Below are positions 2,982 to 40,090 of a stretch of 64,000 nucleotides of DNA, piece by piece. The DNA is from Spirochaetota bacterium. Its GTDB lineage: Bacteria; Spirochaetota; Spirochaetia; DTKZ01. Position 1 is the stretch's first letter. Each line of letters opens with the position of its first letter. The DNA lies in the NCBI GenBank assembly GCA_026418195.1, contig JAOABU010000095.1, forward strand, positions 17,964 to 81,963, in the 5' to 3' direction. Under the pieces are notes generated by a model. The model worked only from the letters and a program-made list of their open reading frames with translations. It searched no databases and was not told where the DNA came from. A program made the translations under genes and the position numbers.

Positions 2982-4430
2982 ATGGAAGCATGGATCGTGG
3001 GGCTTGTTTTCGTCCTTGTGTTTGGATTGATTCTCTATAGGAAGATACCCATTCACTATGTCTCTCTGGTAGGCGCTGCAATTCTTATCGTCACGGGCAT
3101 TATTCCTTTAGGAGTGGCGCTTGGAAACAGTGTCGAATGGGAAGTGTTGTTTATCTACTTTGGGTATGGAATGCTGAGTGTACTGCTTCAGGAAAGTATG
3201 CTTCCCCGTGCCTTAGCGGATGCGATCATTCCTCGAGTACGATCTGAAAACGAGCTTATTTTTTACCTAAGTGCAGTAGCCGCCTTACTTTCTAGTTTCA
3301 TGCCGAATCCTGTAGTTGTCCTTATGGTAGCTCCCCTTGCCCTGGATGTAGCGGATCGATTAAAACGATCCCCGTTTCCCTATCTTGTAAGTATCGCTAT
3401 AGCGTCCAATGTGGTTACAACCGTGACGATGGTAGCGGATCCTCCTTCTATAATATTGGCCATGACCACGAAGATGACTTTTCTAGACTTCTACTGGTAC
3501 CAAGGTAAACCTGGCTTAGGAACCCTGTCGGTAGCAGGCGTAATTGTAGCACTTTTTTCCTTATTGTTTTTAAACAGGAAAATGAACGCTCCCCTTCATG
3601 TCGACGTTGAAACATACCATGCCCCAAGAGCATCGGTGATGATCTTTATCCTAAGCTTCCTGATAGGGATCGGTTCGTTAATTTTGAAACGCTGGATCTC
3701 TCCACTTGCTTTACTGGCAGGATTGGGAGGGGTAGCTTCTTTCGTATTCATCCTGGATGGTAGAATAGCTTCCTTCTATCGAGGAACCCTTCCATCCTTT
3801 CAATTAGGTCCCACTTCTGTCTTTGTTTTAAGTATTTTTGCTTTGATCATCGCCCCTCAGGAATCTCCCCCTGGAATCGCTGCCTTTATCAGCTGGCAGG
3901 GATGGATCGGTTTAGGGCTTGGGTTGATCTGTATTGGTACCATGGGCAGGAAGGCAGCCAAAGAGGTTAAAGAGTACGATTGGGAGACTACTTTGTTTCT
4001 TCTTGGGATTTTCATCGTCGTGGATTCGGTGGACCGGGTAGGAATCCTCTCTGACTTCGTAAAGGTACTTATGCAGGCGGGATTCCGGGATCCTTTCTGG
4101 GTATTCATGCTCGTTACTTGGTTAAGTGTGGCTCTATCTGCCTTTATCGATAATGTTCCGTACACGGTCCTGATGATCCCTGTCTGTGGGTATTTCGCCA
4201 AAACTTTGGGAATTAATCCCCATTATCTCTACTATGGAATGCTTATTGGTACAGGAATCGGTGGGAACATTACTCCCGTGGGAGCTACAGCAAACGTCCT
4301 GGCTTGTGGGATGTTGGAAAAGCGAGGGATCAAGATCCACACACTTGAGTTTATGAAACTGAGTGTTCCATTTTCTATTTCTGCAGTAGTATCGGCCCAA
4401 ATATTGATTCATCTGTTCTGGTACCGATAA
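2982..4430 (+). CDS. ArsB/NhaD-superfamily (CitMHS/YbiR-like) anion permease
   Basis: 482 aa polytopic membrane protein with two-repeat architecture and motifs typical of the ArsB_NhaD permease superfamily. Confidence 0.6.
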   Translation: MEAWIVGLVFVLVFGLILYRKIPIHYVSLVGAAILIVTGIIPLGVALGNSVEWEVLFIYFGYGMLSVLLQESMLPRALADAIIPRVRSENELIFYLSAVAALLSSFMPNPVVVLMVAPLALDVADRLKRSPFPYLVSIAIASNVVTTVTMVADPPSIILAMTTKMTFLDFYWYQGKPGLGTLSVAGVIVALFSLLFLNRKMNAPLHVDVETYHAPRASVMIFILSFLIGIGSLILKRWISPLALLAGLGGVASFVFILDGRIASFYRGTLPSFQLGPTSVFVLSIFALIIAPQESPPGIAAFISWQGWIGLGLGLICIGTMGRKAAKEVKEYDWETTLFLLGIFIVVDSVDRVGILSDFVKVLMQAGFRDPFWVFMLVTWLSVALSAFIDNVPYTVLMIPVCGYFAKTLGINPHYLYYGMLIGTGIGGNITPVGATANVLACGMLEKRGIKIHTLEFMKLSVPFSISAVVSAQILIHLFWYR

Positions 4431-4500
4431 GGAATGAATCAGAGGTTGAGTTTCTATTGTATAAGCTGGTAGATAGAAGTATTATTGTGAGGAGGGGGGT

Positions 4501-5235
4501 ATGGCTATAAGCCAACCAATTGAAGAAAAGGTGAATGACCTAGAAACTGCCATTCGGGAACTTATCTACCTACAACACAAGAATGAAATGCAGATTCACC
4601 AGCTCACTGTGGAAATGAGAGAGTTTAAGGATGAGATGAAAGAGTTTAAAGACGAAATGAAAGAGTTTAAGGATGAAATGAAAGAGTTTAAGGACGAGAT
4701 GAAAGAGTTTAAGGACGAGATGAAAGGCTTCAAAGACGAAATTTTGGGTTTTAAAGAAGAGATATTGGACTTTAAAAACGAGATTAGGGAAGAGAACAGG
4801 CAGATGAATAAACGGTGGGGGGAATTGTCGAATAAGATGGGCACCATTGTAGAGGACCTTGTATATCCTTCCATTAATCCGTTACTTGCCCGTTATTTCA
4901 ACCTGGAACCAATCGATACGGCGGTTCGGATTAGAAGAAAGAAAGGATCTTTATCAGGTGAGTTTGATGCACTGGCAATTTGTGAGGATCGGGTATTCAT
5001 ATTCGAAGTAAAAGCTGGGCCTAGAAAGGAATACATAGAGGAGTTTGTAAACAGGCAGATACCTTTGTTTCGAAGCTTGTTCCCAGAACATGAGAACAAG
5101 ATGGTTATCCCTATTCTCGCGGCTCTACGGTTCGAAGAACCCCTTGTGAAAGAATGCACTTCTTGCGGGGTGTATGCTATGGCATATCGAGAGTGGGATT
5201 ACATGGATTTATTGAATTTCGAAGATTTAAAGTAA
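4501..5235 (+). CDS. Hypothetical protein with 9 heptad tandem repeats (EMKEFKD) and a C-terminal PD-(D/E)XK-like motif
   Basis: Strong RBS GAGGAGG upstream. The repeat is E-M-K-E-F-K-D x6 followed by degenerate copies. The C-terminus has D (EFDALAI) ... E-V-K (IFEVKAG), spaced like a restriction-endonuclease fold. Confidence 0.6.
   Translation: MAISQPIEEKVNDLETAIRELIYLQHKNEMQIHQLTVEMREFKDEMKEFKDEMKEFKDEMKEFKDEMKEFKDEMKGFKDEILGFKEEILDFKNEIREENRQMNKRWGELSNKMGTIVEDLVYPSINPLLARYFNLEPIDTAVRIRRKKGSLSGEFDALAICEDRVFIFEVKAGPRKEYIEEFVNRQIPLFRSLFPEHENKMVIPILAALRFEEPLVKECTSCGVYAMAYREWDYMDLLNFEDLK
4612..4800 (+). repeat. Tandem 21-bp repeat, 9 copies (6 near-identical at 4612-4737, then degenerate), in-frame inside the CDS
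   Basis: gaaatgaaagagtttaaggat-type units repeated head to tail. Variation is mostly at synonymous positions. Confidence 0.9.
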
Positions 5236-5278
5236 TATTTAAGAGATTAGATGAACCTTTTTCATCCCTTCCTTTTCT

Positions 5279-7846
5279 TCAAGCGCCGTTGGAAGGAGAT
5301 GGATTCTTTGCATCCTCCAACGTATCGATGGGGTTTTCACTCCTCTCGATGGGACAAGGTTTGATGTTCCATATTTCCTCTGCATACTGCAGGATGGTCC
5401 GATCCGAAGAAAACCGACCAGAGTGCGCTACATTGATGATGGCCTTCCGGTTCCATTCTTCCGGGTTCGCGTAGACCTGGGAGATTTTAGCCTGGGCTTC
5501 TGCATAGCTGGGTAAATCAGCTAAGTTCAAGTATCGATCATGATGTAGAAGCATCTCTTTTAAAGGGTCGAAAATGCCAGGCTCATTGATGTTGAAATAC
5601 CCAGAAAAGATTAAATCTAATGCCTCTTTGATCTCGGGATCCTTCGCGTAAAACTCCTCGCCATTGTAGTGTTTGGAGAGTTCCAAAGCTTCTTCAGCCC
5701 GCAGACCAAAAATGAAGATGTTCTCGAGACCTACTTCTTCAGCAATTTCTATATTTGCACCATCTAGTGTACCGATGGTAAGAGCTCCATTGCACATGAA
5801 TTTCATATTCCCTGTTCCAGATGCTTCTGTTCCGGCTAGGGAGATCTGCTCAGATACTTCTGCAGCAGGAAGAAGCTGCTCAGCCAAGGTAACTCGGTAA
5901 TTGGGAAGGAAGTAGACCTTTAACTTGTCCTCCATATCCGGATCGTTATTGATGACTTGGGAGAGGTTGTTGATAAACTTGATGATGAGTTTTGCCATTG
6001 CGTATCCAGGGGCCGATTTCCCTCCGAAGAAAAAGGTTCGAGGGATAAATCCTGCGGTGCCTTTCTGTTTCAGTGTATTGTACAGGTACACGATGTGCAG
6101 TGCGTTGAGGAGTTGTCGCTTGTATTCATGAATCCGTTTTACCTGAAAATCGAAGATCGTCTCGGGATCTACGATCCAACCATAGGCATCGGAGAGCTGA
6201 GCGGCAAACGTTTCTTTCGCTTTTCGTTTCACTTCTCTGAACTTTTCCCGGAAGCTCCCATCTTCTGCGAGGGGAAGCAGTTTTTTCAATTCATCCATGT
6301 CCAAGATCCATCCTGGACCGATGGCTTCGGTAATGAGGGAAGCTAGACCCGGGTTTGCTTTCAGAAGCCATCTTCGGTGGGTAATACCGTTCGTTTTGTT
6401 ATTGAACCGCTGGGGATAAATGGATGCAATGTCTGGCACCAGAGTACTTTTCAACAGTTTGGTATGGAGGGCTGCTACCCCATTCGTGGAATGGGACCCT
6501 ACAATACAGAGGAAGGCCATCCGGATTTGTTTGGGATCCCCTTCTTCGATGAGGCTTACCGTCCGGAGCTTCTCGGGATTCCCCCGAAATCGGATGGCGG
6601 CTTCTTTTAAAAATTGATTGTTGATCTCATAGATGATCTGCAGATGCCGGGGGAACAACTTTTCGAACATCGGGAGGGGCCATTTTTCCAGCGCCTCAGG
6701 CATGAGGGTATGGTTGGTGTACCCAAAGGTTCGCACCGTGATATCCCAAGCGGTTTTCCAATCGAGCCCTTCCTGATCAAGAAGAATTCTCATCAGCTCT
6801 GGAATTGCCATGGAAGGATGGGTATCGTTCAGTTGAATGGCTACGTATTTAGGAAAGTCTTTCCAAGGGTTTCCAGAGTTCTTGAATCTCCGAATGATGT
6901 CCCAGAGAGAACAGGCTACGAAAAAGTACTGCTGTCGAAGACGAAGCTCCTTCCCCAAATATTGGGTGTCGTTGGGATAGAGGACTTTCGTGAGGTTTTC
7001 GGCATTCACCTTTTCACTGACCGCTTCCACGTAGTCTCCTTCGTTAAACTCTTGTAAGTCGAACTCCTGAGGCGCTCGAGCAGCCCAGAGACGAAGGGTG
7101 TTGACTGTTTTTCCTCCATACCCAACGATGGGGATGTCATAGGCAATCCCATACACGATCTGTGTGTCTACCCAATGAGAAACCCATCGGCCGTTTTCTA
7201 GAAGCTTTTCTACCCTGCCCCCGTAATTCACTGGCACACAGAGATCAGGGCGTTCGATCTCCCAGGGATTTCCTCCTCGAAGCCAATCGTCTGGGTGTTC
7301 TACCTGCCATCCGTTCTCAATTTCCTGCCGAAAGATCCCATAATCGTACCGGAGGCCGTACCCAAAAGCGGGAAGTTCCATGGTGGCAAGGGAATCGCTA
7401 AAGCAAGCGGCTAGTCGACCCAATCCGCCATTCCCTAGTCCGGCATCTACCTCCTGTTCCTCTAACATTTCCCACTTGTATCCTAGGTTCTTTAAAGCTT
7501 CTTTGACAGGGCCTTCTATACCGAGATTGATCACATTCATTCCCATCAATCGTCCGATAAGCCATTCGAGGGACAGGTAGTACACTCGTTTCACGTTCTT
7601 GCTATGATGAGTCTGTTGGGTTTTGATCCACTGGTTAATCAACCGGTCACGAACTGCATATGCAAGGCTCATGAATCGATCATGGTTTGTAGCAGTGTAC
7701 TTATCTACCCCAAGGGTATACTTCAGATGCTCGGCAAAGCCCCAAGCGATGGATTCTGCATCGAGACCTTGCCGGGAGGTGATCTTTTTTGCCTCATGGC
7801 AAGGATCATCGTTCTTATCCAATCTTTGGGTATCCATCTGGCTCAA
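5279..7846 (-). CDS. glgP: Glycogen/alpha-glucan phosphorylase
   Basis: 855 aa with many phosphorylase motifs, including EASGTGNMKFMCNGALTIGTLDGANIE around the pyridoxal-phosphate lysine. Confidence 0.93.
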   Translation of the reverse strand: MSQMDTQRLDKNDDPCHEAKKITSRQGLDAESIAWGFAEHLKYTLGVDKYTATNHDRFMSLAYAVRDRLINQWIKTQQTHHSKNVKRVYYLSLEWLIGRLMGMNVINLGIEGPVKEALKNLGYKWEMLEEQEVDAGLGNGGLGRLAACFSDSLATMELPAFGYGLRYDYGIFRQEIENGWQVEHPDDWLRGGNPWEIERPDLCVPVNYGGRVEKLLENGRWVSHWVDTQIVYGIAYDIPIVGYGGKTVNTLRLWAARAPQEFDLQEFNEGDYVEAVSEKVNAENLTKVLYPNDTQYLGKELRLRQQYFFVACSLWDIIRRFKNSGNPWKDFPKYVAIQLNDTHPSMAIPELMRILLDQEGLDWKTAWDITVRTFGYTNHTLMPEALEKWPLPMFEKLFPRHLQIIYEINNQFLKEAAIRFRGNPEKLRTVSLIEEGDPKQIRMAFLCIVGSHSTNGVAALHTKLLKSTLVPDIASIYPQRFNNKTNGITHRRWLLKANPGLASLITEAIGPGWILDMDELKKLLPLAEDGSFREKFREVKRKAKETFAAQLSDAYGWIVDPETIFDFQVKRIHEYKRQLLNALHIVYLYNTLKQKGTAGFIPRTFFFGGKSAPGYAMAKLIIKFINNLSQVINNDPDMEDKLKVYFLPNYRVTLAEQLLPAAEVSEQISLAGTEASGTGNMKFMCNGALTIGTLDGANIEIAEEVGLENIFIFGLRAEEALELSKHYNGEEFYAKDPEIKEALDLIFSGYFNINEPGIFDPLKEMLLHHDRYLNLADLPSYAEAQAKISQVYANPEEWNRKAIINVAHSGRFSSDRTILQYAEEIWNIKPCPIERSENPIDTLEDAKNPSPSNGA

Positions 7847-37855: not shown

Positions 37856-39234
37856 TAGTTCCGGCGATTCAGTTCTCTTGGAATAGACTTCAATAGTTCC
37901 AGGAGCTTTTCCTTTCCCCAGAGTTCAATAGGACGGGATTCAGCGAACTCCGAGGCCAGCCTGCTGAAGGAGGAACTGGTGAGAATGATTCCTCGGGTGA
38001 CATTCAACTGTTTCATCTGTTCGTGGAGGGATCGAACGGCAGACTCGTCCACGGGATCAGTCGTACGGAGAAACCAGAGGAGCTTGGGAATCTTTCGCGC
38101 GTTTCTCCACTTGGATTGGGCCTCTACTCCCAATATTTGGCATCCATTATGAATTTCTGTCACATCCTGAACACTCAATCCTATGGTGGAAGCCATATTT
38201 TTACACTGGGTAAGGAACTCATCCCTTCCGACGGTGAGAAAATCTTTTACCCGGTCGTCCTGCCGCAAGTCTTGGTACTGGTTGAGCTTCTCTGCGACGT
38301 CCTTAAAATTGGGTTTCTTTATGTAGATAGCTTCCCAGTGTTCAATGGCTCGTTCTAATTCTCGAAGTTTTTCGTAGCAGTAGGCCAAAAAATAGTGAGC
38401 ATAGAGCAGCTCGTTCTCCTCCCCCTCTTTGATGGTTTTCACCGCTCGTTCCAATTCCGAGGCAGCTTTCTCGAAATTGTTCATACTCATGAAACAGGTT
38501 CCTCGTTCGATCAACGCCTTCGTCTTGTAGATAGGATCTTTTTGAGCCTTCTCGAAGGCTGCAAGGGCAGGGGTATAGTCATGGTTCTCTTTCAGGAGTC
38601 GACCCAAGTAAAAGTAGGCTGCAAAGTTTTCTGGGTTTAGCTTCAAAGAAGCTTCCAACGCTTCCTTGCTTTCGATGATTTTTTTTGTCCGATACAGGAC
38701 CATACCAAGGTGAAAATGCGCTTTCCAGTTTTTCGGGTCCAATTCGATGGTCTTTTGATAGAACTCTATAGCTTTGGCCCCTTTGCCCCGTTCTTCGAAT
38801 AGTTGTCCGATGAGAAAATAGTACTCGGGCTGGTTGGGATCCTTTTTCACCAATAGGAGGTATTCCTTTAGCGCTTCCTCTGGTTGATTGAATTTGGTGT
38901 ATAGTTCTGCTATCTTTCTTCTGAAGGGGACTTCTCTACAGAATTCTGTGAACTGACCAAGGGAGTTCACTGTTTTGAGTTCCATTAGGGCTAGTTCTGG
39001 TTTGTTCTCTGCTAGGTACGCTAGTCCGAGGAAATAATGAGCATCCACATTGCGGGGATCTTTTGCGATCATTTTACGGGCTAATCGGATGGCTGCTGCT
39101 GTCTTATTCTGTTTGACTAGGGTTTCCAGAGTAGCGATCTTTTGAGGGATGATGATGGAGCGGATCAAGAAAAAGGCAAGGAAACCGATCCCCACTCCGA
39201 GGATTATTATAGCTATGATCATCAAGGGCATCAT
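37855..39234 (-). CDS. Membrane-anchored TPR-repeat protein with C-terminal Mrr_cat-like restriction-endonuclease-fold domain
   Basis: N-terminal TM helix, about 8 TPR units, then a C-terminal segment (ILGVEAQSKW ... GIILTSSSFSRLASEFAE ... ELWGKEKLLELL) resembling the Mrr catalytic domain. Confidence 0.6.
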   Translation of the reverse strand: MMPLMIIAIIILGVGIGFLAFFLIRSIIIPQKIATLETLVKQNKTAAAIRLARKMIAKDPRNVDAHYFLGLAYLAENKPELALMELKTVNSLGQFTEFCREVPFRRKIAELYTKFNQPEEALKEYLLLVKKDPNQPEYYFLIGQLFEERGKGAKAIEFYQKTIELDPKNWKAHFHLGMVLYRTKKIIESKEALEASLKLNPENFAAYFYLGRLLKENHDYTPALAAFEKAQKDPIYKTKALIERGTCFMSMNNFEKAASELERAVKTIKEGEENELLYAHYFLAYCYEKLRELERAIEHWEAIYIKKPNFKDVAEKLNQYQDLRQDDRVKDFLTVGRDEFLTQCKNMASTIGLSVQDVTEIHNGCQILGVEAQSKWRNARKIPKLLWFLRTTDPVDESAVRSLHEQMKQLNVTRGIILTSSSFSRLASEFAESRPIELWGKEKLLELLKSIPRELNRRN

Positions 39235-39313
39235 GATCCTTCCGCTCCGATTCCGTAAGAGTAAAGTTTTTCCATTTCTCTGTCAAACCATTCTTAATAG
39301 ATCTCTTCCTCCA

Positions 39314-40090
39314 ATGATAGGACTCTGGAGGGTTCTCCTCTTCCTTTTATTCTTCTTAGGGCCGGGAGTCATTGCACAAACTCAAACAGCCTTTCAGGAA
39401 GGGGAAAGATTCTTCCTGAACAACAATCCTCGTTCGGCCATCCCCTTGTTGGAGCAAGCAACCATACAGGAACCAAGAAACGAACGAATCTACCTCTATT
39501 TAGGAATTGCATACGAACAAATAGGAAATTATGACCAGGCCATTCGAGCGATGAAACGTGGCTTAGAGTTTGCTTTGCAATACAAGGATCTATTCTATTT
39601 CAATCTGGGGAACAATCATCTAGCGAAAGGCGAGACAGAGACCGCCATTGAAATGTACACTAAAGCCCTTGAAACGAACGGGTCGCTGGCAGATGCGTTC
39701 TTGAATCGCGCGAATCTGGAAGTGAAACTGGATCGATTATCCGATGCATGGAAAGACTATTCTGCGTACCTGAACCTTGTTCCGGATTCTCCCCAGCGCC
39801 CACAAATCGAACGAATGATGGCCCTCATCCAATCTATCCTGCAAGATCGGGAAGCGAAACGGATCGCAGAGGAAAAGAGAAGGAAAGAGGAAGAGGAGGC
39901 GAGACGGATTGCTGAGGAACGGCGGCGGCAAGAGGAAGAACGGCGAAGGCAAGAGGAGGAGGCCAGACAGAAAGCTCTGTTGGAGGCTGTACTGAGTTCC
40001 TTGAAAGCCTCTACCGAAGGGGTAGGGAACCTTTCAGCAGAAAAAGAAGACATCCGGGAAAAGCGGATAGAAACGGATATTGAAGAATGA
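39314..40090 (+). CDS. Secreted TPR-repeat protein with highly charged R/E/K-rich C-terminal low-complexity tail
   Basis: Signal peptide MIGLWRVLLFLLFFLGPGVIAQ (internal start chosen; the listed start overlaps the divergent gene). TPR repeats. C-terminal RIAEEKRRKEEEEARRIAEERRRQEEERRRQEEEARQ. Confidence 0.6.
   Translation: MIGLWRVLLFLLFFLGPGVIAQTQTAFQEGERFFLNNNPRSAIPLLEQATIQEPRNERIYLYLGIAYEQIGNYDQAIRAMKRGLEFALQYKDLFYFNLGNNHLAKGETETAIEMYTKALETNGSLADAFLNRANLEVKLDRLSDAWKDYSAYLNLVPDSPQRPQIERMMALIQSILQDREAKRIAEEKRRKEEEEARRIAEERRRQEEERRRQEEEARQKALLEAVLSSLKASTEGVGNLSAEKEDIREKRIETDIEE

Follow-up and report, generated by a model that had tools for sequence, protein, structure and literature searches.

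The locus and its 21-nt array

The window analysed here, 64,000 nucleotides of contig JAOABU010000095.1 from a Spirochaetota bacterium, carries at 4501..5235 (+) a gene with an internal 21-nt tandem array. It is the single open reading frame (ORF) in the region, begins with ATG and encodes 244 amino acids plus a stop codon; a Shine–Dalgarno sequence, GGAGG, can be read directly from the DNA at 4491..4495 (+), 5 nt before the ATG. The product is 100% identical to the NCBI entry 'MAG: hypothetical protein N2442_09445 [Spirochaetes bacterium]' (MAG, metagenome-assembled genome), and the coding sequence (CDS) is complete, with syntenic orthologues in four related spirochaetes (L001, L002, L006 and L007). 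We consider it probable that the gene encodes a cytoplasmic, chromosomally inherited member of the DUF8196 family, a predicted nuclease of the PD-(D/E)XK fold carried on a coiled-coil stalk of variable length.

The protein begins with an N-terminal head (residues 1–37, 4501..4611 (+)) that is helical in the structural model and shares the heptad register of the array. Six well-kept 21-nt units follow, encoding EM(K/R)(E/G)FKD with M at a, F at d, K at e and E at g (residues 38–79, 4612..4737 (+)), and then three degenerate units (residues 80–100, 4738..4800 (+)). A conserved linker, MNKRWGELSNKMGTIVEDL (residues 101–133, 4801..4899 (+)), is continuous with core helix α1 and contains the invariant residues G114, T115, E118 (codon 4852–4854) and D119. 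The C-terminal segment, 4900..5232 (+), includes the motif AMAYREWDYMDLLNF, with the codons of D156 at 4966–4968, E169 at 5005–5007 and K171 at 5011–5013.

Tandem Repeats Finder reported a 21-bp array at 4612–4742, with scores of 182–206 and periods of 21, 42 and 63, and a degenerate continuation of it at 4728–4785. No other tandem array in the 64-kb window scored >68. Read in frame, 4612–4800 comprises nine units: EMREFKD, EMKEFKD four times, EMKGFKD, EILGFKE, EILDFKN and EIREENR. The initial annotation had described nine in-frame units at these positions, six good and three degenerate, and this count holds, but its description of the DNA repeats as nearly perfect or perfect does not. Units 1–5 are identical pairwise at 17–20/21 positions and none are the same; unit 6 matches units 1–5 at 14–18/21 positions and units 7–9 at 9–15/21, unit 9 being scarcely a repeat. 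The longest exact direct repeat in the array is 28 nt.

The array has a fractional guanine-plus-cytosine (GC) content of 0.344, compared with 0.403 for the CDS and 0.482 for the window as a whole. The AT-rich repeat region pointed out in the initial annotation is therefore real, but it has little significance, since E, M, K, F and D are specified by AT-rich codons and the low GC follows trivially from the amino-acid composition. Horizontal acquisition was rejected as its cause, because the orthologues are syntenic and these codons explain the GC. Also rejected was an antisense ORF of 92 amino acids at 4596..4874 (−) with SLNSFIS repeats, which mirrors the array and is not a gene; it has no independent support, and it is the sense frame that is conserved across phyla.

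Predicted structure of the stalk

An AlphaFold2 monomer model of the window protein, built on a 67-sequence alignment (mean predicted local distance difference test score, pLDDT, 88.3), contains one uninterrupted helix, residues 5–133, running straight into core helix α1, which carries E118. When the heptad register is anchored on the array (M = a, F = d), the a/d pattern is unbroken from I7 to I95. Within the array the core is 100% hydrophobic, with M or I at a and F at d, while every e is K and every g is E. The single modelled helix and the unbroken register agree with the coiled-coil stalk that had been proposed from the initial inspection of the gene. The N-terminal head, whose motif EERVxxLExxL... 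recurs across the family, has one polar core layer, Q25(a)/N28(d), that interrupts the hydrophobic core; polar core layers often set the register or the oligomer state in coiled coils. Past I95 the hydrophobic pattern moves by one position, with W106, M113 and L120 at e, which suggests a discontinuity where the stalk meets α1.

Glutamate at g and lysine at e give attractive g–e′ pairs in a parallel bundle, and repulsive g–g′ and e–e′ pairs in an antiparallel one. Because of this charge pattern, the stalk is likely to be a parallel homo-oligomer, either a dimer or a trimer, that would cluster the nuclease domains at one end. The sequence features of a parallel coiled coil (continuous register, hydrophobic a and d, complementary g and e) are all present, and the family logo agrees with them. 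Sequence searches of Pfam, NCBIfam and the PDB with the full-length protein returned coiled-coil noise only, and its matches to Fez1, SMC, Rad50, SAS-6 and Mua were rejected as compositional.

A PD-(D/E)XK fold at the C-terminus

The AlphaFold2 model has pLDDT values of 93–97 in residues 121–240. Behind the long helix lie strands 139–148, 151–160 and 164–170, helix 176–193, strand 201–208, helix 213–221 and strand 225–228, giving the topology H(to 133)-E-E-E-H-E-H-E (H, helix; E, strand), which is the canonical PD-(D/E)XK core. When the model was compared with the PDB by Foldseek, the informative matches were all to PD-(D/E)XK nucleases: Card1 (6xl1, E = 3e-4), VC1899 (1xmx), the R2 retrotransposon endonuclease, Cdn1 and Can2, and further AF1548, AddAB, the XisH-like protein 2okf, EndoMS/NucS and McrC.

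The catalytic-type residues can be placed on this core. The window protein carries E118 in α1, D156 within EFDAL in β2 and E169-V-K171 in β3, corresponding to motifs I, II and III. In family alignments of 67–85 members, G114, T115, E118, D119, P123 and D156 are invariant, E154 and K171 are at least 90% conserved, and position 169 is usually occupied by E. The 13 residues from D156 to E169 equal the spacing between D33 and E46 of Hjc (positions from a figure legend in PMC1913061). The initial annotation had noted both the aspartate and the E-V-K, spaced as in Hjc, and had likened the C-terminus to PD-(D/E)XK enzymes; both residues and spacing are as claimed, and the similarity was found when it was sought in the modelled core, in the Foldseek matches and, weakly but consistently, in family profiles.

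The profile of 85 C-terminal domains aligned its D...E-x-K strands with those of Can2, VC1899 and Card1 (E = 0.06–0.11). When the members were scanned singly against Pfam, sub-threshold matches were obtained to NERD (13/85) and Hjc (8/85), both counted at E of 0.01 or better, and to Card1_endonuc (8/85), DUF6602 (6/85) and PDDEXK_10 (2/85). For NERD (PF08378) the window protein itself scored 15.6–15.7 bits, below the cut-off of 22.1, whereas its relative P0042 passes with 26.8 bits. Hjc (PF01870, cut-off 21.1 bits) did not match the window protein and reached up to 17.7 bits in relatives. The window protein matched neither DUF3782 (PF12644, cut-off 24.4 bits) nor an RmuC hidden Markov model, and its C-terminal domain, searched against Pfam at E up to 10, gave NERD and DUF3852 only. 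A PD-(D/E)XK fold with a complete set of catalytic-type motifs is thus supported for the modelled domain, and from these motifs we infer that the window protein would cleave DNA in a metal-dependent manner.

Some alleles elsewhere in the family depart from the VED sequence that contains E118 and D119. In the Spirochaetales cluster of P0003, four of the six single-heptad alleles (P0271, P0272, P0274 and P0276) have VEG for VED (D119G), and in the cluster of P0032 one allele (P0307) has VEA at this position. Such alleles may be decaying or functionally altered.

Variation in stalk length

Nearly every family member has EMxxFK(D/N/E) units, the number of strict units ranging from 0 to 16, with up to ~30 units in L016. 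At the syntenic locus of the spirochaete clade there are 8–9 units in the window, 16 in L006, 7 in L001, 9 in L007, at least 14 in L069 and 5 in L002, a range of ~5 to 16 that bears out the expectation, raised with the first description of the repeats, that copy number would differ between relatives. The closest comparison is between L001 and L007, which are 99.7% identical over 6650 aligned bases; the sole indel between them is 42 bp, or two units, and lies inside the array. Since the longest exact repeat in the L001/L007 array is 41 nt, k-mer collapse during assembly is unlikely to explain this difference.

Length also varies within clusters of 90% identity, where unit numbers of 1/6/12/14 (200/235/277/291 residues), 2/8, 2/3/5/6, 2/8, 3/4/6 and 3/4 were found; the cluster of the window protein has one member, and size variation is shown for the family and for the spirochaete clade. 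Thiohalocapsa sp. ML1 (L078:3577-5765, NZ_JABX01000002.1) has three head-to-tail paralogues that share 94–96% DNA identity and have near-identical spacers of 52 nt. They differ mainly by array indels of 42, 63 and 84 bp, leaving 5, 3 and 9 units, and all three have N-S-T-K in place of E-x-K. In one further 90% cluster (P0041 and P0292–P0296) the unit is 11 residues long, YKEENRxALEx, and the protein lengths of 190, 201, 223 and 234 differ in steps of 11, so copy-number variation is not limited to the heptad type.

All heptad-array indels observed were of 21, 42, 63 or 84 nt and preserved the frame. As every change is a multiple of the unit length, size varies and the frame never does. Of the two kinds of length variation allowed for in the initial annotation, size variation by whole-unit indels therefore stands and phase variation falls, the gene having a 21-nt unit and frame-preserving indels and thus not qualifying as an on/off phase-variable (contingency) gene. 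Size variation of the stalk between strains and species is supported by these comparisons, and replication slippage or unequal recombination is most likely the mechanism of the length changes.

Array evolution and the Met/Phe core

A logo was made from 954 units, detected by aromatic periodicity only, and gave frequencies of 0.86 for E at g, 0.84 for M at a, 0.95 for F at d, 0.86 for K at e and 0.60 for D at f, with b and c variable. Two units from the same gene share their b/c residues with a probability of 0.254, compared with 0.068 for units from different genes, a value for within-gene sharing that was reached in 0/1000 permutations. Such homogenisation within genes is a signature of local unit duplication and loss. 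The edge units are conserved between orthologues, which points to turnover in the interior of the array.

A tandem repeat was present in 51/99 representatives (P0068–P0216) with a stalk of at least 45 residues. The repeat periods were 7 (24 cases), 14 (9), 11 (8), 18 (7), 22, 25 and 32, all of them sums of 7 and 11, which are the periodicities compatible with coiled-coil packing. P0134, with the period-11 unit MRERSERFEQE, and P0076, with period 18, are examples. Judged from these sequences, the stalk is a hotspot in which tandem amplification occurs in frame and only coiled-coil-compatible periods survive. The Met/Phe core is kept across phyla whose nuclease domains are only 40–55% identical, a strictness of retention that is not expected of a generic coiled coil. 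A literature search for the heptad peptide retrieved no papers. The family thus offers a natural experiment on the evolution of coiled-coil length and core composition.

The DUF8196 family and its distribution

The C-terminal domain of the window protein has 67 homologues in the 90% database. Thirty of these 67 (E = 1e-23 to 1e-46 to the window C-terminus) carry the precomputed annotation PF26618, DUF8196, while the record of the window protein itself (P0001) lists PF23649 only; its membership of DUF8196 would follow by homology. The representative-library search, with a profile from a 5-sequence alignment of the C-terminal domain alone, found 1877 clusters of 50% identity at E up to 1e-3, 762 at 1e-10 and 256 at 1e-30. 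In every match the domain forms the C-terminus and is preceded by an extension of 0–200 residues.

A scan of 185,579 species genomes gave 400 loci. Carriers include Spirochaetota, Saprospiraceae, Lewinellaceae, Desulfobacterota, Thermodesulfovibrionales and other Nitrospirota, Aquificota, Chlorobiota, Chromatiales and Acidobacteriota; single loci were found in each of Thermotogae, Poribacteria, Burkholderiales MAGs and one 'archaeon' MAG. Thermodesulfovibrio sp. N1, Thiohalocapsa sp. ML1, Desulfamplus magnetovallimortis, Persephonella and Sulfurihydrogenibium are carriers that can be grown in culture. Viral contigs (IMG/VR) and plasmids (PLSDB) contained no relatives, and a mobile-element or phage origin was rejected on these grounds. 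PHROGs gave nothing for the window domain; a single relative had a marginal match to a Holliday-junction resolvase (E = 0.025).

No second architecture emerged. Six family members of unusual length, long or short, show no recognisable domain fusions, and all sequences retrieved with the N-terminal head and array as query belong to this family, being truncated or frameshifted members of it. Many copies on long contigs, among them P0227, P0230, P0231, P0244, P0253 and P0256, are apparent pseudogenes: beyond the WGxLANK(M/L)G linker they are cut short, shifted in frame or internally deleted. Genes of this family are easily mis-assembled, and easily misannotated as SMC, tropomyosin or DUF1640-like proteins.

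The relationship to DUF3782 is visible over the linker, where 7/80 relatives match this model at E of 1e-3 or better (best E = 1.5e-5) and the relative P0019 reaches 24.0 bits against the cut-off of 24.4. DUF8196 looks like a sister family of the DUF3782/DUF1626 coiled-coil endonucleases.

Genomic context

The upstream neighbour of the gene, on the same strand, encodes a CitMHS/ArsB-type transporter (2982–4430), and the downstream neighbour is a convergent glycogen phosphorylase gene, glgP (5279–7846). Beyond glgP lie the homoserine dehydrogenase gene hom, a rhomboid gene, prfA, prmC and relA/spoT. The synteny of glgP, hom, rhomboid, prfA, prmC and relA is kept in L001, L002, L006 and L007, and this common gene order indicates vertical inheritance in the spirochaete lineage. 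As upstream neighbour of the orthologue, L001, L006 and L007 likewise have the transporter gene, which L002 does not have in this place.

Clustering of the neighbours at 85 loci revealed no conserved partner gene, only lineage-specific synteny. The 64-kb window has one copy of the family only. The gene is conserved, lies on the chromosome and stands alone.

No sigma-70-like promoter was found within 4300–5400, and so none in the 70-nt gap (4431–4500) that follows the same-strand transporter gene; the gene may be co-transcribed with the transporter gene. At a dozen other loci (L008, L040, L041, L042, L044, L048, L050, L054, L060, L068, L080 and L081), the family gene adjoins sugar-nucleotide and glycosyltransferase genes. 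This synteny occurs in Saprospiraceae, Chlorobiota and a few other loci and is not common to other phyla.

Similarity to known systems

A PD-(D/E)XK domain behind an N-terminal coiled coil has been described for DUF1626 (PDDEXK_10; Knizewski et al. 2007, PMC1913061), and the same coiled-coil and nuclease architecture for DUF3782 (Hartmann et al. 2016, PMC4786415). These families, from archaea and bacteria, resemble the window protein in being uncharacterised and often annotated as generic coiled-coil proteins. They differ from it in several respects. Motif III often has a threonine in DUF1626, whereas the window protein keeps the lysine. The crenarchaeal DUF3782 coiled coils contain a nonad/β-layer motif, A-T-K-x-D/E (described by Hartmann et al. 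2016, PMC4786415), while the window stalk consists of strict EMxxFKD heptads without such a motif. The C-terminal domain of the window type is catalogued separately, as DUF8196, and the window protein matches neither the DUF3782 nor the DUF1626 model. In a GC-rich subfamily (P0057 and P0066), the stalks start with M-A-R-T-D-A-x heptads that are reminiscent of the β-layer motif.

Card1, Can2, Cdn1 and VC1899 (DUF1887; 6xl1, 8bao, 9u49 and 1xmx) provide both the best structural and the best profile-sequence matches to the C-terminal domain. However, these proteins have an N-terminal CARF sensor for cyclic oligoadenylate, belong to type III CRISPR (clustered regularly interspaced short palindromic repeats) loci, and share only 9–18% sequence identity with the window protein. 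The window protein has a single helix before the nuclease and lies between a transporter gene and glgP, outside any CRISPR context, and is accordingly not a member of this group. Hjc and NERD share with it a minimal PD-(D/E)XK core of similar size, and Hjc also the spacing of motifs II and III. Unlike the window protein, Hjc lacks a coiled-coil stalk and uses its core to dimerise, and there is no evidence of junction specificity for the window protein.

Streptococcal M and alpha-C proteins and the stalks of trimeric autotransporter adhesins are size-variable tandem-repeat surface proteins under immune selection. They have in common with the window protein in-frame tandem DNA units that encode a fibrous or coiled-coil segment and a strain-variable copy number that arises by slippage or recombination. 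The window protein differs in lacking a signal peptide or membrane segment, in having an enzyme domain and in appearing cytoplasmic. Designed phenylalanine zippers (Lpp-56 variants 2GUS and 2GUV) likewise place Phe in core positions along a long helix, but this is a composition-level resemblance (E = 0.17–2.8), and in the window stalk the Phe at d alternates with Met at a.

In itself the gene is unremarkable, being, by homology, an ordinary DUF8196 member whose architecture of a stalk and a minimal nuclease has been known for sister families since 2007 and 2016. What is added is at the level of the family: a hotspot of tandem amplification with coiled-coil periods only, copy-number variation between near-identical strains, and a Met/Phe core across phyla. 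The family is also a tractable and widespread group of uncharacterised predicted nucleases that is open to biochemistry.

Interpretation and alternatives

The arrangement that we favour is a DUF8196 nuclease on a length-variable stalk. The stalk would zip into a parallel dimer or trimer and so bring two or three catalytic domains together where it ends C-terminally, the arrangement needed for a metal-dependent endonuclease to act on DNA. The 21-nt array gains and loses whole units, in steps of 21, 42, 63 or 84 nt, most likely by replication slippage or unequal recombination, so that strains differ in the length of the stalk (~1 nm per heptad) but keep an intact frame, head and nuclease domain. 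Our best guess for its role is a stand-alone DNA endonuclease directed at DNA structures or damage and not part of a multi-gene defence system.

Several observations weigh against this interpretation. The Foldseek E-values are modest (3e-4 and weaker), and the query-normalised template modelling (TM) score is ~0.33, the long helix being unmatched. The window protein falls short of the curated threshold of every sequence model, NERD, Hjc and DUF3782 included. Some relatives lack an acidic residue at position 169, the Thiohalocapsa paralogues having NSTK instead of ExK, and some family members may be inactive. The oligomeric state, the strand orientation and the nuclease activity are all inferred, and the model is of a monomer only. 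As to the array, most of the copy numbers derive from short-read metagenome assemblies, in which tandem repeats can be wrongly assembled. In the Spirochaetales MAG Go_SlDig_bin_479, contigs L069 (which ends at 3100) and L018 (which starts at 1) break in or beside the heptad array, indicating that short-read assemblers struggle with long arrays. For the window there is no second sample of the same species, and metagenome scans for same-species contigs gave nothing new.

Whether the variation in length has any consequence is the point on which the closest alternative bears, and we put a neutral explanation at a little under an even chance. The stalk would then be an oligomerisation handle that works at any length above a minimum, and the EMxxFKD consensus would reflect concerted evolution together with generic coiled-coil constraints. 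Functional-looking genes with 1 to ~30 units, and with repeats of period 11 and 18 as well, are consistent with this explanation, as are the conservation of head, linker and nuclease whatever the stalk length and the homogenisation of the b and c positions within genes. It is harder to reconcile with the retention across phyla of Met at a (84%) and Phe at d (95%), which are not swapped for Leu, Ile or Val. Moreover, the codon differences among units 1–6 of the window array comprise 30 synonymous and 10 non-synonymous changes, an excess that argues for purifying selection on the heptad peptide.

The structural matches raise a different alternative, in which the protein would be the effector of a conflict system, an anti-phage or toxin nuclease, with the stalk under diversifying selection and its length adaptive through inhibitor escape or tuning of activation. 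Card1, Can2 and Cdn1, the closest structural relatives together with McrC, are CRISPR ancillary effectors, and the patchy distribution over phyla, the multiple or tandem paralogues in several genomes, the many truncated or frameshifted copies and the quick turnover of the array all fit such a role. PADLOC also gave matches to CARF_PDDEXK and Cas4, but these were marginal, with no model better than E = 0.005. The protein has no sensor domain, the 85 loci share no partner gene, and the family is missing from the IMG/VR and PLSDB collections. In the spirochaete lineage, furthermore, there is one copy of the gene, at a stable syntenic position amid housekeeping genes. We regard a conflict effector as unlikely.

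A functional role for length can also be imagined without conflict. The EMxxFKD array could be a specific, length-tunable Met/Phe zipper that gates or positions the nuclease, with rapid in-frame expansion and contraction that would be adaptive; the stalk might then be of higher order or unusually packed, and its Met layers might be sensitive to oxidation or to a ligand. The Met at a and Phe at d are more conserved across phyla than the catalytic domain, and the arrays turn over within species. We hold this idea to be doubtful, and give it less credence than the conflict effector; if it were true, an evolvable 'ruler' would be mounted on an enzyme with >1800 protein clusters in at least ten phyla.

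It is improbable that the window protein is no active nuclease at all and instead serves as a structural or nucleic-acid-binding coiled-coil protein that has retained a PD-(D/E)XK-like fold. The failure of every curated nuclease model to pass its threshold on the window protein would be accounted for in this way, as would the relatives that lack the acidic residue of motif III (NSTK) or have VEG or VEA at D119. The window protein, however, has all four catalytic-type residues, and the invariance of E118, D119 and D156 and the conservation of K171 at 90% or more in 67–85 diverse members are hard to explain without catalysis. Least likely of all is that the array forms a monomeric single α-helix as a spacer and no coiled coil: five of its seven residues are charged and AlphaFold2 gives a lone straight helix, but the strictly conserved hydrophobic a and d positions, the E and K at g and e and not at i/i+4, and the restriction of the repeat periods in the family to 7, 11, 18 and their sums are coiled-coil features, and the only opposite-charge pairs that can be read from the sequence within one helix are K(b)–D(f) at i+4 and D(f)–K(b) at i+3.

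Other repeats in the window

The only other 21-bp repeat in the window, at 39917–39957 (2 copies), lies in the gene for a 313-residue protein resembling tetratricopeptide repeat (TPR) proteins (39149–40090 (+)). The repeat falls in the part of this gene that encodes a Glu/Arg-rich low-complexity tail, RIAEE(K/R)RR...EEEAR, as does an AGAGGA run at 39868–39897.

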